Positions 3,282 through 32,741 of a stretch of 64,000 nucleotides of DNA are shown here, piece by piece (positions within the stretch are counted from its first letter, which is position 1; every line of letters begins with the position of its first letter). The translations under genes were made by a program, and so were the position numbers. The notes beneath the pieces were generated by a model. The model had not been told where the DNA came from and made no database searches. It saw nothing but the letters and a program-made list of their open reading frames with translations. The stretch lies in IMG/VR virus record IMGVR_UViG_3300033141_004958. One strand, written 5' to 3'. The DNA is from an uncultured virus (IMG/VR IMGVR_UViG_3300033141_004958). Lineage: Duplodnaviria > Heunggongvirae > Uroviricota > Caudoviricetes.

Positions 3282-3319
3282 TAATATGATATCATTATAA
3301 GCAGAATTCATAGTATCAC

Positions 3320-3348
3320 TTGAGATTTCAACATTAATATATTATAAT
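3320..3348 (+). promoter_or_regulatory. Sigma70-type promoter (TTGAGA-N17-TATAAT)
   Basis: Intergenic; upstream of the AAGGAG RBS of queE. Confidence 0.5.
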
Positions 3349-3377
3349 ATTATTAAAAGGCCCAAAAGGAGAAGTTT

Positions 3378-4151: not shown

Positions 4152-4162
4152 GGAGAATACTA

Positions 4163-13703: not shown

Positions 13704-14696
13704 ATGAAGCCTTCAGCGTTGGCAAATGTTCTTCGGCGAACAATTCCAATGCACGCACCAATACTTATTAAAGGCGCTCCCGGAACCGGCAAAACCGATA
13801 TTGTAAGTCAAGCGGCCAAAGAACAAGGCGCGGATCTTATTACGATGCATCCTGTCGTAAGTGACCCAACAGACTTCAAGGGTATGCCGGCGATTGTTAA
13901 TGACCATGCTGTATTCCTTCCCTTCGGTGACCTTAAGCGTTTGTTAGACGCCAACAAACCCACTGTTTGTTTTCTTGACGATCTCGGGCAGGCCCCCGCA
14001 GTCGTACAGGCCGCGGCGATGCAACTTCTTCTGGCGAGACAAATAAACGACCACAAAATAAGCGATCATGTGACGTTTATAGCGGCTACAAATCGAAGAG
14101 AAGATAGAGCCGGGGTCTCCACAATACTCGAACCGGTAAAATCCAGGTTTATGACTATACTTGAATTAACAGTTGATGTAGATGACTGGATTGAATGGGC
14201 ATTGCAAAATGACATTCCTACTGAAGTTATCGCACTCATACGATTCAAACCTGAACTACTAATGGATACCGAAAAACCAACAGCAGATATTGTTAATCGG
14301 CCATCACCAAGAACGGTAGCACATGCAGGGCGGCTTTACTCTTATGGACTTCGCGATCTAGAGGTTTTCGCGGGCGCATGTGGCGAAGGCTGGGCAATCG
14401 AATTCAAAGGGTTTTTGGATGTCTGGCAAAAACTTCCAACAATCGAAAGCATTTTGGCTGATCCGGAAAATGCATGGATACCCAAAACAGAAGAAACTGC
14501 CGCGCAGATTGCTATAGCAATGGCAATCTCAAGGATTATAACGGTAGAAAATATAAAGCCCGCGATAACTTACCTGGATCGGATGCCAACAGAATTCGCA
14601 GTAATGGCACTTAAAGGCGTCGTTACACGTGATTGGAAAATTTGCGAATGTTCAGCATTTACAAATTGGGCACGTAAACATGGAGATTTGTTCTAA
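13704..14696 (+). CDS. MoxR-like AAA+ ATPase
   Basis: Walker A GAPGTGKT, Walker B FLDDL, sensor AATNR, SRF, PSPRT. Confidence 0.88.
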   Translation: MKPSALANVLRRTIPMHAPILIKGAPGTGKTDIVSQAAKEQGADLITMHPVVSDPTDFKGMPAIVNDHAVFLPFGDLKRLLDANKPTVCFLDDLGQAPAVVQAAAMQLLLARQINDHKISDHVTFIAATNRREDRAGVSTILEPVKSRFMTILELTVDVDDWIEWALQNDIPTEVIALIRFKPELLMDTEKPTADIVNRPSPRTVAHAGRLYSYGLRDLEVFAGACGEGWAIEFKGFLDVWQKLPTIESILADPENAWIPKTEETAAQIAIAMAISRIITVENIKPAITYLDRMPTEFAVMALKGVVTRDWKICECSAFTNWARKHGDLF

Positions 14697-14707
14697 GGAA
14701 AAATATT

Positions 14708-15574
14708 ATGAGTAGTACTAATTTGGTAGAACGCGCAATACTCGTCGATCTTGACATATCTAATTGGTCAGGAACGAAGAGAGACCCTCGTCTTTCTCGT
14801 GATATTGTGAAACAGAAAAAGGCAGAGAGAGGAGCGGGATATTGGTGGACGCGCATCGTGCCGGCAAGTAGCCTTCGGCCCGTTCACTCAGCCTGCACTA
14901 ATGCCAGAAAAATCCATGCAGAACTAACATTACCATGGAATGATATGGGCGCGAGACTTCTTCCGTCGAAGATGTTCTTTCAGTATATGGAGAAAATGCA
15001 GAAGGCGAAGGATCGGTTTACAACGGCTGTAGCCAACTTCATTGACGAATATCCATCGTTGCTCGAAGCGGCTGAACAATATCTTGGTGAACTTTTTGAT
15101 CCGAATATGCTTCCATCAGTCGAGGAAGTTAAACACAAGTTTACCTGGAATATAAGAACTTATCCGATACCAACTGCCGGAGATTTCAGGGTAGATCTTA
15201 GCAACGAGGTTGTAGAGGCTATACAGAAAAGCATTGAGGATCGGGTCAAGGCATCATATAATGCAGCAATGGAAGCGCTGTGGCAACGCGTTTATGACAT
15301 TGTGCACCATGTAGCCGAAAGGCTTAGTAATCCAGATAATCAATTTAGGAAAAGCCTTATAACTAACGCTAAGGAACTTTGTGACCTACTCCCCAAATTG
15401 AATGTAGCCAATGATGTCCATCTTGAAAAAATGCGGCGGCAAATTGAAATACAGATTGCTAACAAGAAAGCGGAGGAACTTAGGAATAATCCAATAGAGC
15501 GTAAAAATACGGCAAATGCGGCAAATGATATTCTCAATAAAGTCGATGGATATATCAAGGCATGGCAAAAATAA
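14708..15574 (+). CDS. DUF3150-like helical protein
   Basis: LV.L.IS.W.G, TLPW...G.RLLP, F...YP, L..LNV..D; sits between AAA and VWA genes. Confidence 0.6.
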   Translation: MSSTNLVERAILVDLDISNWSGTKRDPRLSRDIVKQKKAERGAGYWWTRIVPASSLRPVHSACTNARKIHAELTLPWNDMGARLLPSKMFFQYMEKMQKAKDRFTTAVANFIDEYPSLLEAAEQYLGELFDPNMLPSVEEVKHKFTWNIRTYPIPTAGDFRVDLSNEVVEAIQKSIEDRVKASYNAAMEALWQRVYDIVHHVAERLSNPDNQFRKSLITNAKELCDLLPKLNVANDVHLEKMRRQIEIQIANKKAEELRNNPIERKNTANAANDILNKVDGYIKAWQK

Positions 15575-15606
15575 ATACTAGATCCTATAATGAATTTCCA
15601 TATAAA

Positions 15607-15634
15607 TATGGATATTTATTAATAAATATCCATA
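15607..15634. repeat. Perfect 28-bp palindrome
   Basis: TATGGATATTTATT/AATAAATATCCATA. Confidence 0.85.
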
Positions 15635-15655
15635 CAATCTTAGGGAAAATAGAAT

Positions 15656-16846
15656 ATGAAGATATCTAGTTCAAATATCCATAGTCCAACACCGGAGATG
15701 CAATTACGCATTAGCAGAGCGCGAACATCTCTATTATTGAATCATCCATTTTATGGTGTCTTGGCGATGCGACTTGTTATACAACAAGGCCCCGTACCTA
15801 CCGCGGCTACCGATGGACGATATATCTTATATAATCCAACTTGGTTTGAATCGTTAACTGATGCGGAAATAATAGGCGTTATAGCGCATGAGATAATGCA
15901 TTTGGCATGTGGACATATGTGGCGAAAACAATCCAGAGACCTATACCGTTGGAATATTGCCTGTGATATCGCAATAAACAATGTCCTGGAAGATAGCGGG
16001 TTTACACTTCCAGGTAAAGCACTCGTGAATAAAGAATATTATAATATGGCAGCAGAAGCCATATACAATAAAATTAAAGACAGTATAGAAGGTACGGGCA
16101 ATCTTCCCGGCGGTGCGGGCGATTTTATGAAGCCTGGAGAAGTTAACCAGGTACCTGGTGGAAAGGATGGCATTAGCGAAAGCGAATCAAATATCACAGC
16201 ATCGAATCAGTCTCTTGAAAAAGAATGGCAAATTGCTACAGCTCAGGCTGCGCAGGTTACACGAAACAAAGGCGATCTACCTGGCAATATCAAACAAATG
16301 ATAGGTGAGTTTATTAATCCATCAATACCCTGGACCACCTTGCTACGAGACTTTGTTATGCGTTGTGCCAGGAACGATTATAATTGGTCGAGGCCAAATA
16401 GACGTTACTTGTCAAGTGGATTTGTTCTACCGGGTCTTATATCAGACGAACTCCCAGAAGTCATAATGGCCATAGATACTTCGGGAAGTATAAGTAACGA
16501 GGAACTCAAGGCGTTCGCCGACGAAGTATCTGGCATACTAATGGCATTTGATACGACTACTACGGTAATCTGGATAGATAGTCGCGTATGTGGCGTAGAA
16601 AAGTATACTCGAGCTGACCTTCCCCTTAAACTTACTGCCAAGGGACGAGGCGGTACTGATTTTCGACCAGCGTTTAAGTGGGTTGATAAGGAAGGTATAA
16701 CTCCCACATGCTTTATATACTTGACTGATATGGAAGGGATATTTCCCAATGATGCACCAGATTATCCAGTACTATGGATATCCGTCAACCAGAATGATAT
16801 ATGCAATAAGGCTCCATTTGGCGATGTAGTTAAAATGACTATATAA
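15656..16846 (+). CDS. DUF2201-type metallopeptidase-VWA protein
   Basis: PFYG, TAATDG, HEIMH (HExxH), WNIACDIAIN, IDTSGSIS (MIDAS), GRGGTDF, YLTD. Confidence 0.88.
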   Translation: MKISSSNIHSPTPEMQLRISRARTSLLLNHPFYGVLAMRLVIQQGPVPTAATDGRYILYNPTWFESLTDAEIIGVIAHEIMHLACGHMWRKQSRDLYRWNIACDIAINNVLEDSGFTLPGKALVNKEYYNMAAEAIYNKIKDSIEGTGNLPGGAGDFMKPGEVNQVPGGKDGISESESNITASNQSLEKEWQIATAQAAQVTRNKGDLPGNIKQMIGEFINPSIPWTTLLRDFVMRCARNDYNWSRPNRRYLSSGFVLPGLISDELPEVIMAIDTSGSISNEELKAFADEVSGILMAFDTTTTVIWIDSRVCGVEKYTRADLPLKLTAKGRGGTDFRPAFKWVDKEGITPTCFIYLTDMEGIFPNDAPDYPVLWISVNQNDICNKAPFGDVVKMTI

Positions 16847-18753: not shown

Positions 18754-19182
18754 GTGGTTGCAGAAAATGTTCGTCATCAAATTACATCTAAGTTCAAGCC
18801 CGGGGATATAGTCTTTTATATAGCTATAGAACCCAAGCGTAAGACCTGTTCATATTGCAATGGCGGTGGAGAAATGATCCGGCCCGCAGTCAACGATTGC
18901 CTCGACGACGAAACTGTAGTGCCATGCGTAGTTTGTAACGGAAGTGGAGAAGTAGATGTATATTATCCCTATGTTGACAAGGGGGAAATCACTGCGGTTT
19001 CGTTTGTACAATCCGACCTCAACACTCTAGTACCATACTACCATATCAATGATGGTAAATATCCGGCAGATGTATTGTATCTCGACGCCGACATAGCTCA
19101 ACAAGAAGTAATAAGACAAATAGAAGACCTAGAATATCAAGACGAAGAGAGATATGGTGGTTATCGTAGAGGGCGCGAATAG
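18754..19182 (+). CDS. DnaJ-type zinc-finger phage protein
   Basis: KFKPGDIV; CSYCNGGG...CVVCNGSG. Confidence 0.7.
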   Translation: MVAENVRHQITSKFKPGDIVFYIAIEPKRKTCSYCNGGGEMIRPAVNDCLDDETVVPCVVCNGSGEVDVYYPYVDKGEITAVSFVQSDLNTLVPYYHINDGKYPADVLYLDADIAQQEVIRQIEDLEYQDEERYGGYRRGRE

Positions 19183-19621
19183 TACGTTGCAAGTATCCCA
19201 TGCCGATAAGGCTAAGATACATCTACTCTATGGCATAGGCCGCGATATGTTTTCAAGTTCGCAATCCCACGAAGTATTTGTGTATTCGATGCTGGAGATG
19301 ATAAAGTTTATTTTGCATGATTCAGACCGAGTAAGAGATTATATACGTCAATGTATACAGGCAATTAGCAAAACCAATTCTACTATATATGTAGAGAATC
19401 GTAGTAATAATCGGCATATGTATATTCGAAAATCCTTACCATTGCCACGACCAGTGGCAAATGCACCGGAGTTAAGTATCACTGAATGGTCTGAGTGGAG
19501 CATTTACGCCGATAAGAATATCCATGTTGAAATATGTAATAGAACCCGCTTACGTGGAACAATGCATCGTGTGTTCTCAAATCCAGTACCTGTTTATTTA
19601 ACACTAAAATATAGTAAATAA
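19154..19621 (+). CDS. Hypothetical protein
   Basis: 155-aa ORF overlapping the upstream gene. Confidence 0.55.
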   Translation: MVVIVEGANSTLQVSHADKAKIHLLYGIGRDMFSSSQSHEVFVYSMLEMIKFILHDSDRVRDYIRQCIQAISKTNSTIYVENRSNNRHMYIRKSLPLPRPVANAPELSITEWSEWSIYADKNIHVEICNRTRLRGTMHRVFSNPVPVYLTLKYSK

Positions 19622-19701
19622 TTCTAGACCTGGAGATCATTTTTTGTATAATATATACAGGCAATATATATAACCCTTGCTTATGAGACGTATATACTTC
19701 G

Positions 19702-20127
19702 GTGCCTATCACTGATGATGAACTACTTGCCTGTTTGCGGACATATGATTATTTTATCGAAATGGTTTATAGACCTTGCAAAGGGAGGTACAAAATGAAA
19801 GTATGGATCCAGCGTGACTGCCCGCACTGTCATGGTAATGGTACCATATATTGCCCGGATACATCTCGCATAGACAAGTGCCAGGATTGTGAGGGCAAAG
19901 GACATGTCACCGAGTTTATCTCCATTGATCGAATCCGCGATGCCATCCATATAATCGATGCCCTTGAAGGCGACCAAATATCTCTGAGGGACTATCTTGC
20001 TGGTAAGGCGCTTGCGGCAATTGGCGAATTCGGAATTCGCCAACGGGATGCCCTGGCCCGGTGGTGTTATGAAGTTGCCGACGCTATGCTGGAAGTACGG
20101 AAATCTCCAAATCAAAAGGATAAATGA
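19702..20127 (+). CDS. Zinc-finger protein fused to an LRDY.A..A...Y..ADAML phage module
   Basis: CPHCHGNG...CQDCEGKG; LRDYLAGKAL...YEVADAMLE. Confidence 0.65.
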   Translation: MPITDDELLACLRTYDYFIEMVYRPCKGRYKMKVWIQRDCPHCHGNGTIYCPDTSRIDKCQDCEGKGHVTEFISIDRIRDAIHIIDALEGDQISLRDYLAGKALAAIGEFGIRQRDALARWCYEVADAMLEVRKSPNQKDK

Positions 20128-20140
20128 AGGAAAATCATTT

Positions 20141-20317
20141 ATGGGTAGATTTCGTGACTTTCATGGGCGTATAATGAGTGTTCCTGGCAGTGGATGTGCT
20201 GTACATCATATGCTCGCTGACGATAAGAACTATATGGAAGTGCATTTCTACCGATGCACTTCCACCTGTAAACACTGCAATCCTTGCCCTGAGGAAAAGA
20301 AGGAAAACGAACAATGA
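20141..20317 (+). CDS. Small Cys-rich hypothetical protein
   Basis: AAGGA RBS; CTSTCKHCNPC. Confidence 0.45.
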   Translation: MGRFRDFHGRIMSVPGSGCAVHHMLADDKNYMEVHFYRCTSTCKHCNPCPEEKKENEQ

Positions 20318-20393
20318 AAAATAATGGCTATATTGACACTATATATTACGGCTATTGTATGGCTGCTTATTACTATGGGTTAAGTTAGTAGTC

Positions 20394-20516
20394 AGGGGCT
20401 GCGTGGAAAATCAAAGCCGGCGGTTGTGACGCTTACCCGCCATCGCGTATATCGCGAAAACCAAATAGCGCCCCTCCAGTAAGGCACTGGTGACCGCCAC
20501 GCAGCCCCTTTTTTTT
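20394..20516 (+). ncRNA. Candidate structured RNA closed by a 13-bp stem and ending in a U-tract
   Basis: AGGGGCTGCGTGG...CCACGCAGCCCCT enclosing three internal hairpins, followed by T8. Confidence 0.4.
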
Positions 20517-20527
20517 CAAAATTTCTC

Positions 20528-20555
20528 TTGACCTTACATATGCACCACGTATAAT
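20528..20555 (+). promoter_or_regulatory. Early promoter TTGACC-N16-TATAAT upstream of the repeat-gene array
   Basis: Exact family consensus. Confidence 0.75.
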
Positions 20556-20690
20556 ACATTATAAAATGATATTTACTAAAGCCAAATCACCAGTGAAGGA
20601 AGTAAGATTAAAAACTCAAAGAACAGAAAGGGAATGAAAACAAGAGTAGGACTGATTCCCTTGGGACACTTTATTTTAAAGGAGACGTAA

Positions 20691-21404
20691 ATGCGTAAGT
20701 CATTTATCACCAACGGCGTGCCCAGAAAGGGCCTTTCTAGACGCGACGAGCAGTACATTGTGGCCGACAAGCGGAAGACACTCAAAGACGGTCCGTGGAT
20801 TCTGGTCGATGGCGCCGAAATAGAATGTGCGGTCAATGCCCGCATTATAGGTATGTATGGTTCAGCCTGCATCAAGGTCATGCGTGGTTCGACCTGCGTT
20901 GAAGATATGTACGATGAGGCCCATGTCGATGTCATGCGTGATTCCGCCCGCATCGACTGCATGTTCGAATCGGCCTACGTTGGCAGGATGTACGATTCCG
21001 CCAGCATCAAGATCATGCATGATTCGACCTGCGTCGAAAGCATGTACGATTCGGCCTACATCGGCAACATGGTCGATGAGGCTCGTGTCGATGACATGTA
21101 CGGCGAGGCTCGCGTCGAAACCATGCACGAGGAGGCCCACATCGACATCATGTACGATGATGCCCGTGTCGATGCCATGTACGAGGAGGCCCACATCGGC
21201 ACCATGTGCGATAAGGCTCGCGTCGATGTCATGCGCCATATGGCCAGCGTTGGTATCATGCGCGATTCGGCCTATGTCGGTGCCATGTACGATTCAACCC
21301 GAGTCGATGTTATGCGTGATTCAGCCTGCGTCGAAGACATGTACGAGCAGGTCAGCGTCGGTGCCATAGGTGGTTCGGCGCGCATTGTGCATGACCACCG
21401 ATAG
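20691..21404 (+). CDS. Nonapeptide-repeat beta-solenoid protein 1 (short N-terminus, 20 repeats)
   Basis: M[YHRC]DSA[RCHY][VI]xx repeats after GPWILVDGAEIECAVNARIIG. Confidence 0.85.
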   Translation: MRKSFITNGVPRKGLSRRDEQYIVADKRKTLKDGPWILVDGAEIECAVNARIIGMYGSACIKVMRGSTCVEDMYDEAHVDVMRDSARIDCMFESAYVGRMYDSASIKIMHDSTCVESMYDSAYIGNMVDEARVDDMYGEARVETMHEEAHIDIMYDDARVDAMYEEAHIGTMCDKARVDVMRHMASVGIMRDSAYVGAMYDSTRVDVMRDSACVEDMYEQVSVGAIGGSARIVHDHR

Positions 21405-21435
21405 AGGACTCTATCGCCGATAGAGGAGGTATGAA

Positions 21436-22131
21436 ATGTGTAGATCGTTTTCAGGGATCGCGTCGAGGCACGAAACTTACCATCTCGACTGGAGTGACCG
21501 CTATGAGGACATTATCGAATGGTTCAATCTTCCCGACGACCCCGACGAAATCGTTCGCTATGAATACAGCCCCTATAACGATAAATACGACGACTTGACG
21601 GCTTACCTATTGACAGTAGATCAGGACATTCTGCCCGACTGGTGGCATGACCGCAAGGTTGAAATCGAGGCGCAGATGGCCGGATATGTCGAGCGTTGCA
21701 TTGTGGCCGATAGGCGGAAGATACTCGGCGGAGGCCCCTGGATTCTGGCGGATGGTGCGGAAATAGACTGTGCGGTCAATGCCCGTATCATCGGCATGTA
21801 CGGTTCGGCCTGCATCAAGGTCATGCGTGGTTCGACCTACGTCGGCACGATGTGTGGTTCAGCATGCGTCCGTGCTATGTGCGATTTGGCCCACATCAGC
21901 ACCATACGCGAATTGGCCCACATCAACATCATGCGCGATTCGGCCTGCGTCGAAACCATGCGCGATTCGGCCCGCATCAACAGCATGCACGATTTGGCTC
22001 GTGTCGAAGGCATGTATGATTCAGCCTGCGTCGGCATCATGTACGATTCAGCCCGCGTCGAGGCCATGTACGATTCGGCCTACGTCGAAATCAGAAACGG
22101 CGCGGCCGCCATTGCGCATGACCGCCGATAG
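21436..22131 (+). CDS. Nonapeptide-repeat protein 2 (long N-terminus, 12 repeats)
   Basis: MCxxFSGIA...DQDILPDWWHDR domain plus repeats. Confidence 0.85.
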   Translation: MCRSFSGIASRHETYHLDWSDRYEDIIEWFNLPDDPDEIVRYEYSPYNDKYDDLTAYLLTVDQDILPDWWHDRKVEIEAQMAGYVERCIVADRRKILGGGPWILADGAEIDCAVNARIIGMYGSACIKVMRGSTYVGTMCGSACVRAMCDLAHISTIRELAHINIMRDSACVETMRDSARINSMHDLARVEGMYDSACVGIMYDSARVEAMYDSAYVEIRNGAAAIAHDRR

Positions 22132-22179
22132 AATCGGTGTGAAATGTGTAAACGTAATCTTAAAGGAAAGGAGATGTAA

Positions 22180-23295
22180 ATGCGTAAGTCATTTATCGCC
22201 AGCGGCGCGTCCAGAAAGCTTTCTGGACGCGACGAGCGGTACATTGTGGCCGACAAGCGGAAGACACTCGAAGGCGGTCCGTGGATTCTGGTCGATGGCG
22301 CCGAAATAGAATGTGCGGTCAATGCCCGCATTATAGGTATGTATGGCTCAGCCTGCATCAAGGTCATGCGTGGTTCGACCTGCGTTGAAGATATGTATGA
22401 TTCGGCCCGCATCGGTACCATGCGCGATTCCGCCGGCGTTGGCACCATACGCGATTCGGCCTGCGTCGAAAGCATGCACGACTCGACCCGCGTCGAAGGC
22501 ATGTACGGTTCGACCCACATCGCCGTCATGTACGATTCGGCCCAGATTGGCACAATGTACGGGTCGGCCTGCATCGGCACCATGCGCGATTCGGCTCGTG
22601 TCGATGTTATGCGCGATTCAGCCCATATCGCTGCCATGTACGGTAAGGCTCGCGTCGAAACCATGCGCGATTCAGCTAGCATCAAGATCATGTGGGATTC
22701 GGCCCGCATCGAAAGCGTGTATGATTCGGCTCGCGCTGATGTCATGCACGATTCGGCTCGCGTCGGTGTCATGCGCGAATTCGCCCAGGTCGAGGCCGTG
22801 TGTGATTCGGCCTGCATCGAAAGCATGTACGACTCGGCCTATATCGTTGCCATGCGTGATTCGGCCTGCATCGAAAGCATGCACGATTCGGCCCGCGTCG
22901 AAGCCATGTACGGTTCGGCTCGTGTCGATGTTGTGCGCGATTCAGCCTGCATCGGCACCATACGCGATTCGGCCTGCGTCGAAACCATGCGCGATTCGGC
23001 CTACGTCGAAGACATGTACGGTTCGACCCGCATCGCCGTCATGTACGATTCGACCCAGATTGGCACGATGTACGGGTCGGCCTGCATCAGCACCATGCGC
23101 GATTCGGCTCGTGTCGATGTTATGCGCGATTCAGCCCGCGTTGATGCCATGTACGAGTCGGCTTATGTCGGCACCATGCGCGATTCAGCTAGCATCAAGA
23201 TCATGTGGGATTCGGCCCGCATCGAAAGCGTGTATGATTCGGCTCGCGTTGATGTCATGCACGATTCGGCCGCCATTGCGCATGACCGCCGATAG
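22180..23295 (+). CDS. Nonapeptide-repeat protein 3 (short N-terminus, 35 repeats)
   Basis: Same N-terminus type as 20691; internal block duplication. Confidence 0.85.
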   Translation: MRKSFIASGASRKLSGRDERYIVADKRKTLEGGPWILVDGAEIECAVNARIIGMYGSACIKVMRGSTCVEDMYDSARIGTMRDSAGVGTIRDSACVESMHDSTRVEGMYGSTHIAVMYDSAQIGTMYGSACIGTMRDSARVDVMRDSAHIAAMYGKARVETMRDSASIKIMWDSARIESVYDSARADVMHDSARVGVMREFAQVEAVCDSACIESMYDSAYIVAMRDSACIESMHDSARVEAMYGSARVDVVRDSACIGTIRDSACVETMRDSAYVEDMYGSTRIAVMYDSTQIGTMYGSACISTMRDSARVDVMRDSARVDAMYESAYVGTMRDSASIKIMWDSARIESVYDSARVDVMHDSAAIAHDRR

Positions 23296-23307
23296 AAGAG
23301 GGGTGAA

Positions 23308-24066
23308 ATGTATAAGTCATTCAGCGGCATCGCGCTTAAGCGCGACAATCGCTATCTCGACTGGAGTGACCGCTACGAGGACATTATCGAGTGGTTCAAT
23401 CTTCCCGATGATCCGGAGAAAATCGTCTGCTATGAGTATGTCCCGCGCGAGTGGCGTTACGATGACCCGGAGGCGTACGAGTTGCGCGTCGCTCAGGACA
23501 TTCTGCCCGACTGGTGGCATGACCGCAAGGTTGAAATCGAGTCGCAAATGGCCGGGTATGTGAAGCGCTGCATTGTCTCGGACAAGCAGGAGATTCTCGG
23601 CGGTGGCCCGTGGATTCTTGCGGACGGTGCGGAAATAGAATGTGCGGTCAATGCCCGCATTATAGGTATGTATGGCTCGGCTCGGATCAGTGCCATGCAC
23701 GATTCCGCCCGAGTCGATGTTATGCGTGATTCAGCCTGCGTCCGTGCCATAGGTGACTCGGCCAGCGTGGGCGCCATGTACGATTCGGCCTGTGTCCGTG
23801 CCATAGGCGATTCGGCCCACGTTGGCGCAATGTACGATTCAGCCTATGTCGGTACGATGCGCGACTTGGCCCACATCGGCACGATGTACGAGTCGGCCCG
23901 TGTCAACATCATGCACGATTCAGCCCGAATCGGTGTCATGTGTGAGTCGGCCTACATCGGTACTATGTATGACTCGGCCCGCATTGAAAGCATGTATGAT
24001 TCTGCGCATATCGCTGCCATACACAATTCGGCCGGTATTGCGCATGACCATCGTAAGGAGAAGTGA
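23308..24066 (+). CDS. Nonapeptide-repeat protein 4 (14 repeats)
   Basis: Paralogous N-terminal domain plus repeats. Confidence 0.85.
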   Translation: MYKSFSGIALKRDNRYLDWSDRYEDIIEWFNLPDDPEKIVCYEYVPREWRYDDPEAYELRVAQDILPDWWHDRKVEIESQMAGYVKRCIVSDKQEILGGGPWILADGAEIECAVNARIIGMYGSARISAMHDSARVDVMRDSACVRAIGDSASVGAMYDSACVRAIGDSAHVGAMYDSAYVGTMRDLAHIGTMYESARVNIMHDSARIGVMCESAYIGTMYDSARIESMYDSAHIAAIHNSAGIAHDHRKEK

Positions 24067-24067
24067 A

Positions 24068-24898
24068 ATGTGTAGACCGTTTTCAGGAATTGCTTTGATA
24101 CGGGAGATCCGCCGTCTCGACTGGTCAGACAGCCACGAGGATATTATCGAGTGGTTCGATCTCCTCGATGACCCGGAGAAAATCGTTCGCTATGAGTATG
24201 CTCCGCGCGAGGGTCGCTACGACGACTTGGCGTCATACGAGTTGCGCGTCGATCAGGATATTCTGCCCGACTGGTGGCATGACCGGGCGAAGGAACTCCA
24301 GTGGCAGTTGGCCAGGTATGTGAAGCGCTGCATCATCTCGGACAAGCGCAAGATTCTCGGCGGTGGCCCGTGGATTCTTGCGGACGGTGCGGAAATAGAA
24401 TGTGCGGTCAATGCCCGTATCATCGGCATGTATGGTTCGGCCCGCATCAAGGTCATGCGTGGTTCAGCCCGCGTCGGCAGGATGTGTGGTTCCTCCCGCA
24501 TCGGTGTCATGGACAGTTCAACCTACGTCGATGCCATGCACGATTCGGCCCAGATAGCTATCATGCGCAATTCGGCTCATGTCGGCACCATGTGCGATTC
24601 GGCCTACGTAGAGGCCATGCACCATTCGGCCCACGTCGAAGGCATGTATGATTCTGCCCGCATCAAGGTCATGCACGATTCAGCCCGCGTTGATGCTATG
24701 CGCGACCTGGCCCACATCGGCATGATGCGCGATTCAGCCCGCGTTGATGCCATGTACGAGAAGGCGCGCATCAACATCATGCGCGATTCAGCCCGCGTTG
24801 ATGCCATGTACGAGGAGGCCCGCATCAACATCATGCGCGATTCAGCCCACGTCGAATACATGTACGGGGCGGCCGCCATTGCGCATGACCGCCGATAG
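24068..24898 (+). CDS. Nonapeptide-repeat protein 5 (17 repeats)
   Basis: Start MCRPFSG at 24068 after AAGGAG; the ORF-track extension upstream is a shadow frame. Confidence 0.85.
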   Translation: MCRPFSGIALIREIRRLDWSDSHEDIIEWFDLLDDPEKIVRYEYAPREGRYDDLASYELRVDQDILPDWWHDRAKELQWQLARYVKRCIISDKRKILGGGPWILADGAEIECAVNARIIGMYGSARIKVMRGSARVGRMCGSSRIGVMDSSTYVDAMHDSAQIAIMRNSAHVGTMCDSAYVEAMHHSAHVEGMYDSARIKVMHDSARVDAMRDLAHIGMMRDSARVDAMYEKARINIMRDSARVDAMYEEARINIMRDSAHVEYMYGAAAIAHDRR

Positions 24899-24910
24899 AG
24901 GAGGGGTGAA

Positions 24911-25903
24911 ATGTGTAAGTCATTCAGTGGCGTCGCGCTTCGACGCCACAATCGCTATCTCGATTGGTCAGACAGCCACGAGGATATTATCGAGTATTTC
25001 GGGTTGCCCGATGATCCGGAGAAAATCGTCCGCTATGAGTATGCTCCGCGCGAGGATCGTTACGACGACTTGGCCTCATACGAATTGCGCGTCGATCAGG
25101 ACATTCTGCCCGGCTGGTGGCACGACCGCAAGGTTGAAATCGAGTCGCAAATGGCCGAACGCGCCCGCCGCTGCATTGTGGCCGATAGGCGGAAGATGCT
25201 CAAAGGCGGCCCCTGGATTCTGGTGGACGGTGCGGAAATAGAATGTGCGGTCAATGCCCGCATTATAGGTATGTATGGTTCGGCCCGGATCAGTGCCATG
25301 TGGGGTTCGGCCTGCGTCGAAAGCATGTACGATTCGGCCTGCGTCAGCGCCATGCACGAGGAGGCCCGTGTCGATGCCATGCGTGAATCAGCCCACGTCG
25401 ATGCCATGCACGATTCAGCCCACGTCGAAGGCATGTATGATTCAGCCCGCATCGGGGTCATGCACGAGTCGGCCCACGTCGAAGGCATGTACGATTCGGC
25501 TCACGTCGAAGGCATGTATGATTCGGCCCACGTCGAAACCATGTACGATTCGGCCAGCGTCAAAACCATGTACGAGTCGGCCTACGTCGATGCCATGTGG
25601 GATTCGGCCCAGATCGCTACCATGCGCAATTCGGCGCGCGTCGGTGTCATGTGCGAGACGGCCCACGTCGATGCCATGTACAATTCGGCTCACGTCGAAG
25701 GCATGTACGATTCGGCCTGCGTCGAAGGCATGTACGATTCGGCCTGCGTCGAAGATATGTACGATTCGGCCAGCGTCAACACCATGCGCGATTCGGCTCG
25801 CGTTGATAACATGTACGAGTCGTCGCGCATCAACATCATGCGCGATTCAGCCCGCGTTGATGCCATATACGAGTCGGCCGGTATTGCACATGACTGCCGA
25901 TAG
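24911..25903 (+). CDS. Nonapeptide-repeat protein 6 (23 repeats)
   Basis: Paralogous N-terminal domain plus repeats. Confidence 0.85.
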   Translation: MCKSFSGVALRRHNRYLDWSDSHEDIIEYFGLPDDPEKIVRYEYAPREDRYDDLASYELRVDQDILPGWWHDRKVEIESQMAERARRCIVADRRKMLKGGPWILVDGAEIECAVNARIIGMYGSARISAMWGSACVESMYDSACVSAMHEEARVDAMRESAHVDAMHDSAHVEGMYDSARIGVMHESAHVEGMYDSAHVEGMYDSAHVETMYDSASVKTMYESAYVDAMWDSAQIATMRNSARVGVMCETAHVDAMYNSAHVEGMYDSACVEGMYDSACVEDMYDSASVNTMRDSARVDNMYESSRINIMRDSARVDAIYESAGIAHDCR

Positions 25904-25915
25904 AGGAGATGTGAA

Positions 25916-26719
25916 ATGTGTAGATCGTTTTCGGGAATTGCTTTGAAACGGGAAATCCGCCGCCTCGATTGGAGCGACAGCCACGAGGATATTATCGAGT
26001 GGTTCGGTTTACCCGATGACCCGGAACAAATCGTCCGCTATGAATATAGCCCCTATAACGGCGAATACGACAACTTGGCGTCATACGAGTTGCGCGTCGA
26101 TCAGGACGTTCTGCCCGACTGGTGGCATGACCGGGCGGACGAAATCCGGTCGGAGATGGCCGGGTATGTCGAGCGCTGCATTGTGGCCGATAGGCGGAAG
26201 ATACTCGGCGGTGGTCCGTGGATTCTGGTGGACGGTGCGGAAATAGACTGTGCGATCAATGCCCGCATTATAGGTATGTATGGTTCAGCTCGGATCAACA
26301 GCATGTACCGTTCGGCCTGCGTCGGCAGGATGTGCGATTCGGCCTGCATCAACATCATGCAGGAGGCGGCTTGCGTCACCTTTATGTATGGTTCGGCTCA
26401 CATCGGCACCATGCACGATTCGGCCGGTGTCGGCGAAATGCGCGAATCGGCTCGCGTTGATACCATGCACGATTCGGCCAGCATCAAGATCATGCGCGAT
26501 TCGACCCGCGTCGAAACCATGCGCGATTCGGCCCGTGTCCGTGCCATGTATGAGTTGGCCTACGTCGGCACCATGCACGACTCGGCTCGCGTTGATGCCA
26601 TGTACGATTCAGCCCATATCGCTGCCATGTATGAGTCGGCCTACGTAGAGGCTATGCACCATTCGACCTACATCAGTGCCATATATGATTCGGCGCGCAT
26701 TGCACATGATTACCGATAG
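25916..26719 (+). CDS. Nonapeptide-repeat protein 7 (16 repeats)
   Basis: Paralogous N-terminal domain plus repeats. Confidence 0.85.
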   Translation: MCRSFSGIALKREIRRLDWSDSHEDIIEWFGLPDDPEQIVRYEYSPYNGEYDNLASYELRVDQDVLPDWWHDRADEIRSEMAGYVERCIVADRRKILGGGPWILVDGAEIDCAINARIIGMYGSARINSMYRSACVGRMCDSACINIMQEAACVTFMYGSAHIGTMHDSAGVGEMRESARVDTMHDSASIKIMRDSTRVETMRDSARVRAMYELAYVGTMHDSARVDAMYDSAHIAAMYESAYVEAMHHSTYISAIYDSARIAHDYR

Positions 26720-26731
26720 AAGAGGGGTGAA

Positions 26732-27469
26732 ATGTGTAAACAACCATTCAGCGGCATCGCGCTTAAGCGCGACAATCGCTATCTCGACTGGAGCGACCGC
26801 TACGAGGACATTATCGAATGGTTCAATCTTCCCGACAACCCCGACGAAATCGTCCGCTATGAGTATGCCCCGCGCGAGGGTCGCTACGACGACTTGGCGG
26901 CTTACCGATTGAAGGTGAAGCAGGACATCGTGCCCGACTGGTGGCATGACCGCGCGGACGAAATCCGGTCGCAAATGGCCAAACGCGTCAGCCGTTGCAT
27001 TGTGGCCGATAGGCGGAAGATACTCGGCGGTGGTCCGTGGATTCTGGTCGATGGCGCCGAAATAGAATGTGCGGTTAATGCCCGTATCATCGGCATGTAC
27101 GGTTCAGCGCGCGTCGATGTTATGCGTGATTCAGCCCGCGTCGATGTTATGCGTGATTCAGCCTGCGTCGGCATCATGTACGGTTTAACCTACATCGGTA
27201 CCATATACAACCTGACTCACATCATTGTCATGCACGATTCGACCCAGATCGGCACGATGTACGGTTCGGCCCATGTCGATGTCATGCGCGACTCGACCCG
27301 CATCAACACCATGCACGATTCAGCCCATATCGCTGCCATGTATGAGTCGGCTTACGTAGAGGCCATGTACAATTCGGCCTACATCAGTGCCATGTATGAT
27401 TCGGCCCGAGTCGGTGCTATGTACGACTCAACCCGCATCGCGCATGACTACCGGATAGAGGAAGACTAA
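26732..27469 (+). CDS. Nonapeptide-repeat protein 8 (13 repeats)
   Basis: Paralogous N-terminal domain plus repeats. Confidence 0.85.
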   Translation: MCKQPFSGIALKRDNRYLDWSDRYEDIIEWFNLPDNPDEIVRYEYAPREGRYDDLAAYRLKVKQDIVPDWWHDRADEIRSQMAKRVSRCIVADRRKILGGGPWILVDGAEIECAVNARIIGMYGSARVDVMRDSARVDVMRDSACVGIMYGLTYIGTIYNLTHIIVMHDSTQIGTMYGSAHVDVMRDSTRINTMHDSAHIAAMYESAYVEAMYNSAYISAMYDSARVGAMYDSTRIAHDYRIEED

Positions 27470-27472
27470 TAA

Positions 27473-27769
27473 ATGCGCCGAAACTTAGAGCACTTGAATA
27501 AAAGTCAGGGAGGCTATGATGCCTTCGACCGCTTGTCCAGCATGAAGAAGTACTACAGCCGGAGGCGCACGGTGCAATTTTTCCTCCTCACCGACAAAGG
27601 CATCAAGTTCCATCGTCCCATATGTGCAGTATGTGGGGAACCAATCACCGTTGAGAGCGGGAATCGAGGCCAGTACCATCCGAAACGTCGTCAGCACATC
27701 CTAATGCACTATAAGTGCGCTTGGAGTGCTCTGGCAAAAGACTGGTTTGGGGCAGTAGATAGAAAGTGA
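27473..27769 (+). CDS. Small Zn-binding hypothetical protein
   Basis: CAVC...HYKC. Confidence 0.55.
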   Translation: MRRNLEHLNKSQGGYDAFDRLSSMKKYYSRRRTVQFFLLTDKGIKFHRPICAVCGEPITVESGNRGQYHPKRRQHILMHYKCAWSALAKDWFGAVDRK

Positions 27770-28209
27770 CAAAGATGACAAAGGCTGAAATCCAAAAACA
27801 TATCTACCAATTTGGAGTGCCCCTGGCACTCGACAAGTTTGATTGGAACGATAAAGAGAAACGATTTCAAACGCAAGAATCAAACCTCCAAATCCAATGC
27901 GAAGACATAGACAACATGAACATCTCCGTCCAGCACAATTGTTCCATTAGCGTTGGAGCAGGCTGTACCATCATAGGAGGACGTAGATGTGATGTCCTTG
28001 CAAATAAGGATTGCCGAATCATTTTGCTTGATGAGGCCAGGATAAAGGCAGGAGAGGGTTGTTCTATTGATGTCGGGAAAGATTCCTTTATCACGGCTGG
28101 GAATGGATCGTCAATCCGAGCTCGAACTAACGGAACAATTTTGACAGGGCCAAATAGTAAGGTAGATGCCGAACGAGGATGCACAGTTGGACGAATGGTC
28201 CCTATATAG
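27766..28209 (+). CDS. Octapeptide-repeat beta-helix protein
   Basis: N-terminal EIQK...G.PLAL.KF.W; G..C.I.. repeats of period 8; paralog of 28972. Confidence 0.7.
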   Translation: MTKMTKAEIQKHIYQFGVPLALDKFDWNDKEKRFQTQESNLQIQCEDIDNMNISVQHNCSISVGAGCTIIGGRRCDVLANKDCRIILLDEARIKAGEGCSIDVGKDSFITAGNGSSIRARTNGTILTGPNSKVDAERGCTVGRMVPI

Positions 28210-28215
28210 TAGGAG

Positions 28216-28431
28216 ATGAACATCCCCTTGAATCGGGAAGCGATTGACTTGATTAACCGCATTTGGGGGGAAGAGGATCTGCACAAACCAATAGTCGATA
28301 TAACGGATCTGGAGGGCCCCGCCTCTATGCGACGCCGAAGAATAAAGGAAACCGACAGGGTTGCTTTGTCCATGAAGCCAATACAATCCAGGAACTGCGT
28401 ACGTTGGCAAATCAAATATCGGGTGCATTGA
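28216..28431 (+). CDS. Hypothetical protein
   Basis: AGGAG RBS. Confidence 0.4.
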   Translation: MNIPLNREAIDLINRIWGEEDLHKPIVDITDLEGPASMRRRRIKETDRVALSMKPIQSRNCVRWQIKYRVH

Positions 28432-28462
28432 AACATTGAATACAAAGAAAAGGAGCATAGGC

Positions 28463-28615
28463 ATGGCAGAACCGCTAAATGTTGGGGTTGAGCAGGATGC
28501 AGAGGGGCGTTGGTATGTAGAATTTCCAATCGATTGCGGCACTGCTTGGCTGCTATGCAAAAATGAAAAAGCAGCCAGACACCTGGCAAACGTCATGAAG
28601 GAATGTGTAAAATAA
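28463..28615 (+). CDS. Small hypothetical protein (50 aa)
   Basis: AAGGAG RBS; MAEPLNVGVEQDAEGRWYVEF... Confidence 0.5.
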   Translation: MAEPLNVGVEQDAEGRWYVEFPIDCGTAWLLCKNEKAARHLANVMKECVK

Positions 28616-28828
28616 TACTGGAAGATATCATAAATGTAGCGCTAACTCGAGCAGTTTCCGGCAGCGGAAGGGTTTGGCTTCTTGAGCAGAATTCCAATTT
28701 GACAAGTGGATATGAAAATTGCGTTGTTGGTGGTGGGATGGATGTTCTGGCCTGTCATATATAGTGCTTACCAAGATTGTCTATAGGGGCGGGGAGGAAC
28801 GATACACCGCCGATTGATCAAAAAGAAA

Positions 28829-28887
28829 CTTGACCTGGTCTTGAGAAACCATATAATAATTATATGGTTTCATTAGATCAGGTCAAG
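28829..28887. promoter_or_regulatory. Palindromic pair of face-to-face CTTGACC-N16-TATAAT promoters
   Basis: + strand TTGACC 28830-28835 and TATAAT 28852-28857; the - strand reads CTTGACC-TGATCTAATGAAACCA-TATAAT. Confidence 0.7.
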
Positions 28888-28971
28888 CACTAGCCCCGGT
28901 CTCATGGATCCATATAATATATCATATCCGAAAAGATGAAAGGCCACTTACTCTAGTTGGAAAGGATTGAG

Positions 28972-29600
28972 ATGAATAAGTACGAAGTCCAAAAGCGGGT
29001 GTTGCAAGATGGTAAGCCGCTTGCACTCGCGAAATTCACGTGGGATGCGAGAGCCCGCGTGTTCAGTACAACGGAGGACAATCTGACGCTCCACTTTAAG
29101 GATATACATAGTCTATCATTCATAGCCGGGTATAAATGTACATTCATAACCGGTGATGGCTGTACGTTCCAGACAGGCGCGGATTGCACGTTCAAAACTG
29201 GTTGCGACTGTGTATTCATAACCGGTTGGGGATGTACATTCAAGACCGATACGCGGTGCATGTTCCTGACAGGCCCGGAGTGTAAATTCATAACGGGCAG
29301 TCACTGCACATTCGAGACGGGGGATGACTGTACGTTCCAGACAGGCTCGGAATGTATATTCAAGACCACCAGTGGTTGCAAGTTCGAAACCGGCGATGAC
29401 TGCACGTTCCAGACAGGCTCGGAATGTACATTCAAGACCGAGTATGACTGCATGTTTAAGACGGGCAGTCATTGTACATTTGAAACTGGCGCAAGGAGCA
29501 CATTCCAGACGGGTAGACATTTAAACCCGGCGCTGATTGCATATTCAAAACCGACGTAGACTGCGCATATATCTCAAATGGGGTCGGACCGTCGTCATGA
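28972..29600 (+). CDS. Octapeptide-repeat (C.F.TG..) beta-helix protein, frameshifted near 29517
   Basis: Many period-8 repeats; the repeat continues (TFKPGADCIFKTDVDC) in another frame to TGA at 29600. Confidence 0.7.
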
Positions 29601-29719
29601 ATATGACACTTTAAATCCATGGTAGGATAAACAACAATCACTGATAAAGCCATATTCGCTCGCGATATGTTTCTGACAGAACAGATATACTATACGAGGC
29701 ATTTATCGCGATAATCAAG

Positions 29720-29971
29720 ATGATAGAGGAAAATTATGATTTTGGGAAATTTGAAACCAACTCACCTAATACGTTAAGGAGCATGATATACCAATTTGGC
29801 CGACCCGAAACGATCTGGGGCAATGCAGGAAAGATTCGGCCATATTGTATTAATCGGGATATTTCCGCAAGGCATCACAATGTACCAAACCGGGCCTATG
29901 ATTGTTTTGCTGGATATATACTTATAAAGACATTATGTGTTCATTTCTCGGAATCAACAGTGATATTTTAA
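29720..29971 (+). CDS. Hypothetical protein
   Basis: 83-aa ORF, weak support. Confidence 0.3.
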   Translation: MIEENYDFGKFETNSPNTLRSMIYQFGRPETIWGNAGKIRPYCINRDISARHHNVPNRAYDCFAGYILIKTLCVHFSESTVIF

Positions 29972-30410
29972 AGGATGAGGCGACGTGGCCACTTGATAGG
30001 TTCATATTATCTTAAGCGTCTTATAAGATGTGGAATTTCTATCATTGATCCACAGATTTTCTCTTTTGAAATAGAGTTATGTGAGGGGTGGCCTGGATTC
30101 CGAATCAACGGACAAAACATATATGACAACAGATTACTATTTCCACTGGCCCCGTGGATTATCGGCTAAGCCCGGTTCAACATCAACTAGTAATACTGGA
30201 TCATTCTCAACTCAAACTACTCAACGGAAACATTGTGGATCTTTATGTTCATCATCTATACCCCCCATTTTACTACTTGCTTATAAATTTATCAATACAA
30301 CGTCATATGATCTATATAAATATATAGTGAATTTGCTCGGATTTGAGTGTTTTTATTACTATACCGTTGTATGAATCGATTTCTATTATAGAAGGGGAGA
30401 GAATAAACAC

Positions 30411-31301
30411 ATGATCTCCGACGACATAATTAACTTCTATACCTATTTGGCTATTCGTAATAAAAACTTAGCTCCAGATAATTTTATATACAATGCGGAA
30501 AAGGCTTTCGAGAAAATTAAAGAGCGGATAAAAGATAGTTTAATTGTCGAAGGATATTGCGCGATAGCAGATGAACTATCATATTATCCAATGCCAAAGA
30601 AGGGCAAAGATACCACTTATTTTCCTATAGATGAGATGGAAATATTATGTGAAAAGGGGAAAAACTTTCGGGACTTATTACATGGTTATATTATAGGGAT
30701 GTGGGCGGATTACATTTATAAAACTATAGATAGGGAATATAAACGCAAGGCATCAGCGATACCGAAACTACAAAGCGTTACTAAGGCAGCGTTTGTCGAT
30801 GCGTTGGATTTTGTGTATAATAATATTGATAAGTATAAAGATTATGTGGAGCTCCACATATTCTTTAAAGAATATGTGGAGGAGGCGCGTAGATATTCGT
30901 CGGATGCATTGGCGTGTATTGATAGAATTGCGCAGGATGCAATAGAATTTGAGCAAGATAATTTTCCTTCAATAGAGCTTTTTATCGCCTACGCTATTAA
31001 GACTTTTAAGCGAGGTAAGTATTGGGCGGCGGAATATGGCGGCGCGTCATGGGCCAGAATTGCCCATGATTTCTTGGCATTTTATAAATCGCGTGCCCCT
31101 TCTATAACAGACATCGACCACATGTTGGATTTGGTACATAATACTGATACGTGGCTTGATAAATTTGTGTATGCTGATGATCTATCGGATGCGCTTTATC
31201 TCAAATTTGTCCTTTCACCGGAAAAGCTTGCGGATAAATGCACCGATAAAGATATTAAGAGGTTGGCAAAATACACTCAAATCCGGTTTGAATCACTATA
31301 G
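30411..31301 (+). CDS. Conserved-looking phage hypothetical protein (W...YGG..W..IA...IDH..DL.HN motif)
   Basis: 296-aa ORF with RBS and a distinctive C-terminal motif; TATAAATA upstream at 30315. Confidence 0.7.
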   Translation: MISDDIINFYTYLAIRNKNLAPDNFIYNAEKAFEKIKERIKDSLIVEGYCAIADELSYYPMPKKGKDTTYFPIDEMEILCEKGKNFRDLLHGYIIGMWADYIYKTIDREYKRKASAIPKLQSVTKAAFVDALDFVYNNIDKYKDYVELHIFFKEYVEEARRYSSDALACIDRIAQDAIEFEQDNFPSIELFIAYAIKTFKRGKYWAAEYGGASWARIAHDFLAFYKSRAPSITDIDHMLDLVHNTDTWLDKFVYADDLSDALYLKFVLSPEKLADKCTDKDIKRLAKYTQIRFESL

Positions 31302-31531
31302 CGATTATGCTTTGACTATTGGTTGTTGAATAGGATGCGCAGCAAAGAGGTGTTACATGGTTTTGGCTAAGTCGACTCAATGCGTGTTTCAATACAACGT
31401 TGTGTTTGACGTGTTTGTATCAAAAACAGAACAATACAATTCTATTGGTGGTATTGACTCTCCCTTGCGCAAAATATAGCACTACAATTACAAGTGATTA
31501 AGTTCCCTTTGGTTGCTGTCCTAAGGAGGGC

Positions 31532-32664: not shown

Positions 32665-32741
32665 GGGCTCGTAGCTCAGCTGGTCAGAGCGCGCCCCTGA
32701 TAAGGGCGAGGTCGGTAGTTCGAATCTACCCGGGCTCACCA
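32665..32741 (+). tRNA. trnI: tRNA-Ile(GAT)
   Basis: GGGCTCG acceptor, D-arm AGCTCAGCTGGTCAGAGC, anticodon arm CGCCC-CTGATAA-GGGCG, T-loop TTCGAAT, encoded CCA. Confidence 0.93.

Follow-up and report, generated by a model that had tools for sequence, protein, structure and literature searches.

The stretch of viral DNA analyzed here (64,000 nt, called the window below; IMG/VR record IMGVR_UViG_3300033141_004958, Caudoviricetes) carries at positions 20691-27469 a tandem array of eight genes, g1 to g8, whose products consist largely of nine-residue repeat units. All eight genes lie intact on the + strand, and inspection of the open reading frames (ORFs) revealed no internal stops. Counted after a NARIIG motif, the genes encode 20, 12, 35, 14, 17, 23, 16 and 13 units, respectively, which add up to 150 and are all in register, and a short C-terminal cap (I-[AV]-H-D-x-R) closes every paralog. 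An earlier note on this DNA had described the same eight genes, unit counts and total, in-frame repeats and one promoter; our analysis reproduced these exactly.

The paralogs differ in their N-terminal parts. Six have a long version of 120-121 aa, the exceptions being g1 (20691-21404, 237 aa), with 54 aa in front of 20 full 9-aa units, and g3 (22180-23295, 371 aa), with 53 aa in front of 35 units that include an internal duplication. The long version contains a head with several conserved residues, and g1 and g3 have no head. This head motif is complete in g5 (24068-24898, 276 aa, 17 units), in which C2, D21, H23, E43 and D62 are all kept, in g6 (24911-25903, 330 aa, 23 units) and in g7 (25916-26719, 267 aa, 16 units), the gene whose head was also folded alone (see below). 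The other three depart from it: g2 (21436-22131, 231 aa, 12 units) keeps C2 and has Tyr at H23, g4 (23308-24066, 252 aa, 14 units) carries C2→Y, H23→Y and D62→A, and g8 (26732-27469, 245 aa, 13 units) keeps C2 and has Y23 and K62.

A strong sigma-70-like promoter (TTGACC-N16-TATAAT, 20528-20555, + strand) that matches 11 of 12 consensus positions lies upstream of the array, and the same hexamer pair recurs on the + strand at 28830. A search of the + strand from 20366 to 28654, a span that includes the array, revealed no terminator-like site. Five of the seven gene junctions carry the sequence CGATAGA[GA]GAG..TGAAATG, in which the TAG stop of the upstream gene falls within the Shine-Dalgarno sequence and neighboring genes are 12-31 nt apart. 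The g4/g5 junction is a variant, the g5 ATG following one base after the g4 TGA, and the 48-nt g2/g3 spacer contains the relic of a long-form start and then a leader that is also present in g1. From these signals the junctions look translationally coupled and the array operon-like. Directly upstream of the promoter is a GC-rich structured element (20394-20517, + strand), in which a 13-bp stem encloses ~90 nt and a T8 tract comes next; its predicted RNA fold has an energy of -52.4 kcal/mol (z -3.28), and 2 of 200 shuffled sequences fold as well. A scan of 19000-31500 with Rfam gave only two chance-level eukaryotic matches and none for this element, which is probably a terminator, of large size, belonging to the upstream unit; a small RNA is another possibility.

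The consensus of the 150 units is M-[YRHC]-D-S-A-[RCHY]-[VI]-x-x. Met is found at position 1 in 135 units, Ser at position 4 in 124 and Ala at position 5 in 130. Position 2 is mainly Tyr (66), Arg (41), His (22) or Cys (9), position 3 Asp (88), Gly (28) or Glu (23), position 6 Arg (56), Cys (27), His (26) or Tyr (19), and position 7 Val (85) or Ile (64), with variable residues at positions 8 and 9. The units comprise 135 distinct peptides and 143 distinct 27-nt sequences, and Tandem Repeats Finder reports periods of 27, 54, 81 and 108 throughout the array. Identity between units averages 0.64 across the array, by which measure most units are old.

Variable positions of the units are nearly two-state and linked by transitions, with YRC codons at positions 2 and 6, RTC at position 7, and R as the first base of codons 8 and 9. 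Between units, transitions outnumber transversions by factors of 3.3, 2.4 and 1.6 at the first, second and third codon positions, respectively, compared with 1.4 overall for the heads of the same genes. This pattern could be explained by a few old polymorphisms spread via unit duplication, by selection, or by biased mutation. Adenine-specific variation, the mark of a diversity-generating retroelement, was looked for in the window, and the unit variation was found to consist of transitions at purines and pyrimidines alike; Pfam detected no reverse transcriptase among 48 window ORFs and 12 proteins in or beside the array, ~18 ORFs, mainly of the structural block from ~50 kb, being outside that scan. 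The repeat DNA is also open in further frames on both strands within 20576-27177 (e.g., 22343-23563, 406 aa; - strand 22080-22826, 248 aa). The protein collection that lists the window proteins, on a single 126,449-bp contig, does not contain the exact sequences of five of the eight array proteins, for which gene callers probably chose other starts or frames.

Predicted structure and family of the array proteins

The AlphaFold2 model of g2, computed from a 13-sequence alignment, has a pLDDT of 93.2 and a pTM of 0.84, and the ESM Atlas model of the identical sequence has a pLDDT of 0.88. In the g2 model the head comprises a strand (residues 5-10), a helix (23-30), two further strands (39-46 and 57-61) and a long helix (68-88), and a regular solenoid begins at about residue 94. 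Each unit contributes a single five-residue strand, formed by unit positions 6-9 together with position 1 of the next unit, and a turn made up of positions 2-5; the beta-solenoid proposed from the repeats before any model had been made is thus what is predicted. With high confidence, the long paralogs are predicted to consist of a ~90-residue alpha/beta head joined to a capped, rigid beta-solenoid rod, and g1 and g3 as lacking the head. Residues 85-231 of g2 align with many unrelated beta-solenoids (Z 10-11.6, rmsd ~3 Å, ~145 residues), among them pentapeptide-repeat proteins, the autotransporters TibA and Ag43, and a Ca-dependent antifreeze protein; these matches show the general solenoid fold of the rod and nothing beyond it. 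Foldseek found no match to the whole g2 model in the PDB at E≤0.001. Folded alone from 62 sequences, the g7 head reaches a pLDDT of 93.4, and no look-alike was recovered for the head among solved structures (best Z 4.9; Foldseek against the PDB, no match at E≤0.001; sequence-profile search of the PDB, nothing below E 0.49).

The matched solenoid chains span ~1.12-1.2 times more residues than the g2 model, and position 7 of the units agrees more often at lag 2 (0.60) than at lags 1 and 3 (0.44). Given that the solenoids compared have coils of 19-20 residues, the span ratio and the lag-2 signal indicate that two units probably make up one 18-residue coil. A triangular 27-residue coil, hinted at by the 81-bp period, was tentatively rejected in favor of the 18-residue coil on the same span ratios and lag-2 signal. 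Beta-solenoids usually rise by ~4.8 Å per coil, and at this value the rods of the array would be ~3 to 8.5 nm long. Conservation within the unit is seen at Met1, Ala5, Val/Ile7 and position 9, which makes it likely that these positions are buried. Variation is greatest at positions 2, 6 and 8 (Tyr/Arg/His/Cys and Gly/Asp/Glu), and the residues there are likely to line up as exposed ladders. Array proteins contain no membrane-like segment (highest Kyte-Doolittle 19-residue mean ≤1.19), and we regard them as soluble with high confidence. Their isoelectric points (pI) range from 4.7 to 6.1, with a value of 7.9 for the repeat part of g5, and net charge is about -28 in g6 (330 aa) and -5 in g5 (276 aa).

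None of the eight proteins has a match above cut-off in Pfam, PHROG, NCBIfam or PADLOC. They belong to a phage family of very large size whose members have a conserved head in common; neither this membership nor the foreign base composition of the array (see below) was foreseen in the earlier note. A profile that combines the window genes with five relatives, searched against 1.84 billion representatives, matched 2515 clusters (defined at 50% identity) at E≤1e-3, 1261 at ≤1e-10 and 330 at ≤1e-30; most of the 2515 are 200-350 aa long and matched from residue 1. A hidden Markov model built from 62 family members scores all eight window genes, and the ESM Atlas places g2 among several viral clusters with 50-130 members each. 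The head consensus of the family is MCxFxSAIV..G...TDSHEDL...FVRVEF.P...Y.L..DE..P.WF, and 60-62 diverse relatives show little or no variation at M1, C2, S6, D21, H23, E43, D62, P67 and W69. Relatives share, along with the head, the first coil (LLGG.WIL), units of the form M-x-[GDE]-S-[SA]-x-V-x-x, and the D-x-R cap.

We took a census of 148 of the 150 best hits, excluding the very long, repeat-only P0072 and P0111. In this set, 106 proteins begin with MC, and at E≤1e-4 Pfam finds DUF7666 (PF24703) in two, ArdA (PF07275) in one, the YdcK solenoid repeat (PF18836) in one, and nothing else. The ArdA-fused relative is P0025, with the C-terminal domain at residues 408-593 (E 2e-14); window proteins have no Pfam match to DUF7666 or ArdA. 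Position 1 of the unit is M, V, I or L across the 148 relatives, so that the Met at nearly every ninth residue, singled out earlier as unusual, is present in the array but occupies an ordinary core-facing hydrophobic position. Position 2 is mainly Arg (331), Tyr (311) or Trp (220), residues that are enriched at binding interfaces. The 35 units of g3 exceed those of all 148 relatives (maximum 25, by a regular-expression count that undercounts).

A search with the head motif identified 39 viral contigs. The comparison of array size that had been proposed in advance shows a single copy in 37 of these within the available DNA and two copies in L031 and L046, as against eight here. The same head is found on other kinds of rod, including a pentapeptide rod in L043, 8-residue repeats in L021, L031, L036 and L041, 7-8-residue repeats in L039, 20-residue repeats in L045 and 4-residue repeats in L046. 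Since one head is joined to such different rods, we consider the head the constant part of the family and the solenoid an exchangeable module. An MCRFKSGI subgroup was present at nine loci in metagenome-assembled genomes of Bacillota (genome-contig scan), and another genome-contig scan for the family found no loci. In metagenomes, a scan with g2 alone gave 132 pattern matches of which none was confirmed, and an alignment scan gave five loci with 36-41% identity. Neither the array nor the structural block had a near match in nucleotide and protein searches of a phage collection, the sole match being Dulem virus 35 (24% identity). We found no description of the family among the titles and abstracts listed for DUF7666, nonapeptide and solenoid repeats, pentapeptide anti-defense proteins or YdcK, subscription papers and supplements lying outside this search.

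Origin and diversification of the array

The GC content of the array is 0.51-0.57, compared with 0.34-0.45 across most of the window, and GC at third codon positions (GC3) is 0.66-0.71 in the eight array genes, compared with 0.23-0.38 in four core phage genes. This composition is foreign to the AT-rich phage and points to acquisition of the array from a GC-rich phage lineage. The array is shared with the GC-rich viral contig G002 (44.5 kb, GC 0.60) at 72-74% nt identity. Family genes are located at both ends of G002, so that its array is broken by the assembly, and the copies show frame breaks. The end of locus L002 is collinear with the g5→g6 junction of the window at 72% nt identity, which places the origin of the array, or of some of its gene order at least, before the split.

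Two further features are shared with G002. A gene for a 98-aa Cys-rich protein (27473-27769, + strand, GC3 0.60) begins 3 nt after g8; its homolog in G002 (L002 5912-6188) is 85.6% nt identical, and it belongs to no Pfam or PHROG family. Elsewhere in the window, a GC-rich island (10317-11567, + strand; GC 0.58, GC3 0.69) encodes a 416-aa protein with an 86% aa identical homolog in G002 and no Pfam, PHROG or PADLOC family. The island and the array together suggest several transfers from one donor lineage. On sequence identity, the array appears to have diverged more (72-74% nt) than the genes co-shared with it (85.6% nt, 86% aa), a comparison that paralogs may confound.

A separate, closely related contig of 8594 bp encodes g2-, g4- and g8-like proteins of exactly the lengths found in the window, with 12, 7 and 1 (P0160) residue differences, respectively; ten of the 12 changes in g2 are in the rod. 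As the longest exact repeat inside the array is only 76 bp, and as this second contig has equal-length genes, an assembly artefact, which the earlier note had allowed for, is unlikely. The eight intact frames and the 95-99.6% identity of these proteins fit the claim that the array is maintained.

The heads of the six long paralogs are block-wise mosaics whose groupings conflict along the alignment. A mosaic analysis had been called for, and the pairwise homoplasy index (PHI) of the six heads is 0.399, compared with 0.512 ± 0.016 in permutations, of which 0 of 2000 were as low; the heads are therefore recombinant. The g1 and g3 genes are ~95-98% identical from the ribosome-binding site through unit 2 (the first ~235 nt plus the leader) and ~65% identical thereafter, and all other pairs of paralogs share 69-86% nt identity. 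Within g3, units 7-10 match units 26-29 and units 13-15 match units 32-34. Diagonal runs of similar adjacent units number 25, as against a mean of 6.2 and a maximum of 12 in 100 shuffles. Read from these alignments, the array owes its diversity to gene conversion among its paralogs, to the duplication of units in blocks, and to point substitutions. The recombination postulated earlier is thus borne out by the mosaic heads, the g1/g3 breakpoint and the duplicated block in g3, but active shuffling of 27-bp units is not evident.

Genomic surroundings in the window and in relatives

The window derives from a large myovirus-type phage, with genes for the portal, tail sheath, and baseplate wedge and hub on the - strand at ~43-64 kb. 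The + strand half (1-31 kb) encodes glycosyl-, methyl- and sulfotransferases, QueE- and QueC-like proteins, an RNA ligase, and an AAA ATPase with a DUF2201 metallopeptidase/VWA protein. The array lies in this early or middle, non-structural + strand half. A cluster at 515-4759 (+) consists of genes for a GT8 glycosyltransferase, two methyltransferases, a sulfotransferase, a QueE-like radical SAM protein and a QueC-like protein, and may be a module for modification of DNA or surface sugars that includes the 7-deazaguanine pathway. At 13704-16846 (+), a MoxR-like AAA ATPase, a DUF3150 protein and the DUF2201 metallopeptidase/VWA protein are encoded in a row that looks like a chaperone-like trio. 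A single tRNA gene, tRNA-Ile (GAT), is located at 32665-32741 (+), where the + strand gene block gives way to the - strand block.

Two other repeat proteins are encoded downstream of the array, at 27766-28209 (+) and 28957-29559 (+). They have a common N-terminal pattern (..G.PLAL.KF.W..) and no Pfam, PHROG, NCBIfam or PADLOC family. The rod of the former is made of irregular Gly/Cys-rich units and that of the latter of strict 8-residue CTFxTGxx units. The 28957-29559 gene is preceded by the second TTGACC-N16-TATAAT promoter (28830-28857), which faces an identical promoter on the - strand (28886-28859).

We surveyed the neighbors of family genes by a PHROG scan of 120 proteins at 22 loci on 21 phage or metagenome contigs. 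An exonuclease or RecE gene is found beside the family gene at six loci (L003, L010, L021, L023, L024 and L039), Erf or RecT at four (L003, L023, L034 and L039), a DNA methyltransferase at three (L003, L013 and L015) and Mu Gam at one (L023); five of the 22 loci have a helicase or primase and two an integrase or excisionase. No head or tail module adjoins the family gene at any of the 22 loci, save for one weak tail-fiber PHROG match to the L034 repeat protein. Judged by these neighbors, the family gene resides in what is the predicted early recombination/replication region of temperate phages. A different repeat protein, matched in several stretches by PHROGs 7713, 923 and 31265, is encoded near the family gene in L015 (9425-9997) and L034 (6590-7402), and repeat-rod genes of differing kinds seem to cluster in early phage regions.

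Proposed function and comparison with known systems

We tentatively favor, as quite possibly correct, a reading in which the array proteins are early cytoplasmic rods that act on host proteins as binders or decoys, and in which the head provides a partner or activity in common. The rods would be produced early in infection and would occupy host proteins without acting as enzymes, their targets being most likely defense or DNA-metabolism factors. Eight lengths and surfaces would give a wider target range, the conserved head would supply a shared partner or activity, and the head-less and motif-degenerate copies would work as rods alone. This proposal draws on the position and promoter of the array, the early-region context of the family, the exchangeable rods, the exposed Arg/Tyr/Trp-rich ladders, the faster divergence of the array, and the single ArdA fusion. 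Early expression, already part of the earlier note, is plausible from the promoter and the genomic context of the family, from which it is deduced. The anti-defense role suggested there is hinted at by the family context and by the one ArdA fusion, but Pfam, PHROG, NCBIfam and PADLOC contribute no match in the array.

Several observations weigh against this proposal. PADLOC recognizes no window protein, the other databases give nothing above cut-off, and the ArdA fusion is a single case among 148 relatives. The acidity of the array proteins is modest and unlike that of typical DNA mimics. The near-invariant C2, D21, H23, E43 and D62 suggest, from sequence conservation, that the head could be an enzyme or a metal site, in which case a description as a non-enzymatic binder would be incomplete. 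Copy number elsewhere is undercounted, as a contig end falls inside the family gene in 13 of the 39 viral contigs (L009-L047). In the comparison with the 8594-bp contig, five of the seven changes in g4 are in the head rather than the rod, the unit numbers of the three genes are unchanged, and g8 differs by one residue; the last two points indicate that diversification has not been rapid on that time scale. The invariance among relatives that had been named in advance as a possible objection to a diversified array therefore holds for unit numbers in the three comparable genes, yet not for their sequences, which differ by 1-12 residues.

A head-centered enzyme or adaptor is a somewhat unlikely alternative, in which a Cys-His(-Asp/Glu) catalytic or metal site would use Cys2, the solenoid would serve as a ruler or targeting rod, and copies lacking C2, H23, D62 or the whole head would be regulators or dominant-negative partners. 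The nine near-invariant residues in 60-62 relatives, the MC start of 106 of 148, the retention of the head while the rod type is swapped, and the confident folding of the head alone all speak for it. Yet the head has just ~90 residues and no solved look-alike, three of the six long copies have Tyr at H23 (g4 also lacking C2 and D62, and g8 D62) with their frames intact nonetheless, and g1 and g3 are entirely without a head. Mimicry of DNA, which the earlier note had mentioned, is unlikely. Here the rod would imitate duplex DNA and block gyrase or restriction enzymes in the manner of the pentapeptide-repeat proteins Qnr, MfpA and AlbG or of ArdA; Qnr- or ArdA-like mimicry requires dimerization. 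Top structural matches include Np275/276 (Z 11.6), EfsQnr (11.1), MfpA (11.0), AhQnr (9.7) and AlbG (9.1), the same head precedes a true pentapeptide rod in L043, one relative is fused to ArdA, and net charge is negative overall. These Z scores are tied, however, with those of the unrelated solenoids TibA (11.5), Ag43 (10.6) and the antifreeze protein (10.1), and the charge is modest and uneven between paralogs; with isoelectric points that are just moderately acidic, this part of the earlier note is weakened.

It is very improbable that the array encodes virion or surface fiber parts, i.e., variable-length solenoids used as structural fibers or decoration proteins. Tailspike solenoids are among the fold matches (Z 8-9.4), but the array occupies the non-structural half of the window, away from the portal, sheath and baseplate genes, relatives at the 22 loci surveyed adjoin recombination and replication genes instead of head or tail modules, and the proteins are small (231-371 aa), with no trimerization or attachment domain recognizable by Pfam or PHROGs. 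Neutral or selfish expansion, by which a horizontally acquired, repeat-rich gene was amplified through unequal recombination into copies with little present function, is also quite improbable. It would fit the foreign base composition, the loss of the head motif in some copies and the frame breaks in the G002 copies, and since the repeats leave every frame open, openness by itself says little in favor of function. Against it, ~6.8 kb with 150 units are intact in the sole frame that continues from a head and a ribosome-binding site, the three genes on the related contig retain their length and high identity, and the g5→g6 order is kept in a phage at 72% nt identity. The binder or decoy proposal also has a far-reaching version, which we consider distinctly unlikely: a recombination-diversified repertoire of binders directed at host defenses, in which the Cys/His head would confer a common activity or partner, the surface with its Tyr/Arg/His/Cys ladders, encoded by transition-linked YRC codons, and rod length would choose the target, head-less and motif-dead copies would be competing decoys, and the transition excess would reflect a dedicated or biased mutational input rather than selection alone. 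Variable recognition systems built on repeats would then have a viral equivalent.

With thousands of 50%-identity clusters and interchangeable rods, the family ranks with the larger ones of phages that have neither model nor name, and it is located where phages keep host-takeover and counter-defense genes. The array amounts to a natural experiment, with eight copies, rods of 12-35 units, differing surfaces and head integrity, and recombination between copies. If the rods bind host factors, they would offer a ready panel for finding targets and for learning how solenoid surfaces encode specificity, and the family would be a new class of phage counter-defense proteins. Repeat genes of this type are also frequent break points of assembly (13 of 39 contigs, and both ends of G002), so copy numbers in public data are underestimates.

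The closest known proteins are those of the unnamed family itself, with its MCxF head and repeat rod (e.g., the hypothetical protein XCD05138.1 of Dulem virus 35), which share the head, the first coil, the nonapeptide rod and the [IV]-x-x-D-x-R cap with the array and give full-length matches that reach E 1e-40 and beyond. Unlike these relatives, which are single-copy at 37 of 39 loci, the window has eight tandem copies, of which two are head-less and one (g3) has 35 units. YdhT of Escherichia coli (NF007410) likewise has nine-residue units (x-[DNG]-[SN]-[SA]-x-[IV]-x-x plus one hydrophobic or Gly position). Its similarity to the array (g3, 23.9 bits, E 2.7e-5; g5, 17.5 bits; cut-off 300 bits; hhalign probability 2.4%) lies in the repeat pattern alone, and YdhT differs in having no MCxF head and in its location in a redox operon. 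The YdcK repeat (PF18836) gives a weak match to one relative, P0007 (24.7 bits, E 1.8e-5, below the 30-bit threshold), and none to a window protein.

Among better-known solenoids, the RTX beta-roll is built on the calcium-binding nonapeptide GGxGxDxUx. It shares with the array the nine-residue period and, probably, two units per 18-residue coil; the array has no GGxGxD motif and no match to the Pfam family HemolysinCabind, and its proteins, in which no secretion signal was seen, are cytoplasmic. Pentapeptide-repeat proteins (Qnr, MfpA, AlbG, Np275/276) are capped, rod-like beta-solenoids of similar size (Z 9.1-11.6). The array differs from them (PF00805) in its period of 9 rather than 5, in the absence of A(D/N)LXX and of any Pfam match at E≤1, and the fold match is no better than that to unrelated solenoids. 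With respect to the arrangement of the genes, phages are reported to expand counter-defense genes into tandem copies (Nat Commun 2026, PMC13096335). The array copies are old and diverged (69-86% nt identity outside g1/g3) instead of recent and identical amplicons, and any anti-defense role here is putative. Beta-solenoid repeat proteins and tandem arrays of paralogs are thus kinds already known; what is new is an eight-fold, recombination-mosaic array of an unstudied family, with head-less and motif-degenerate members, a record number of units in g3, and a clear horizontal origin.

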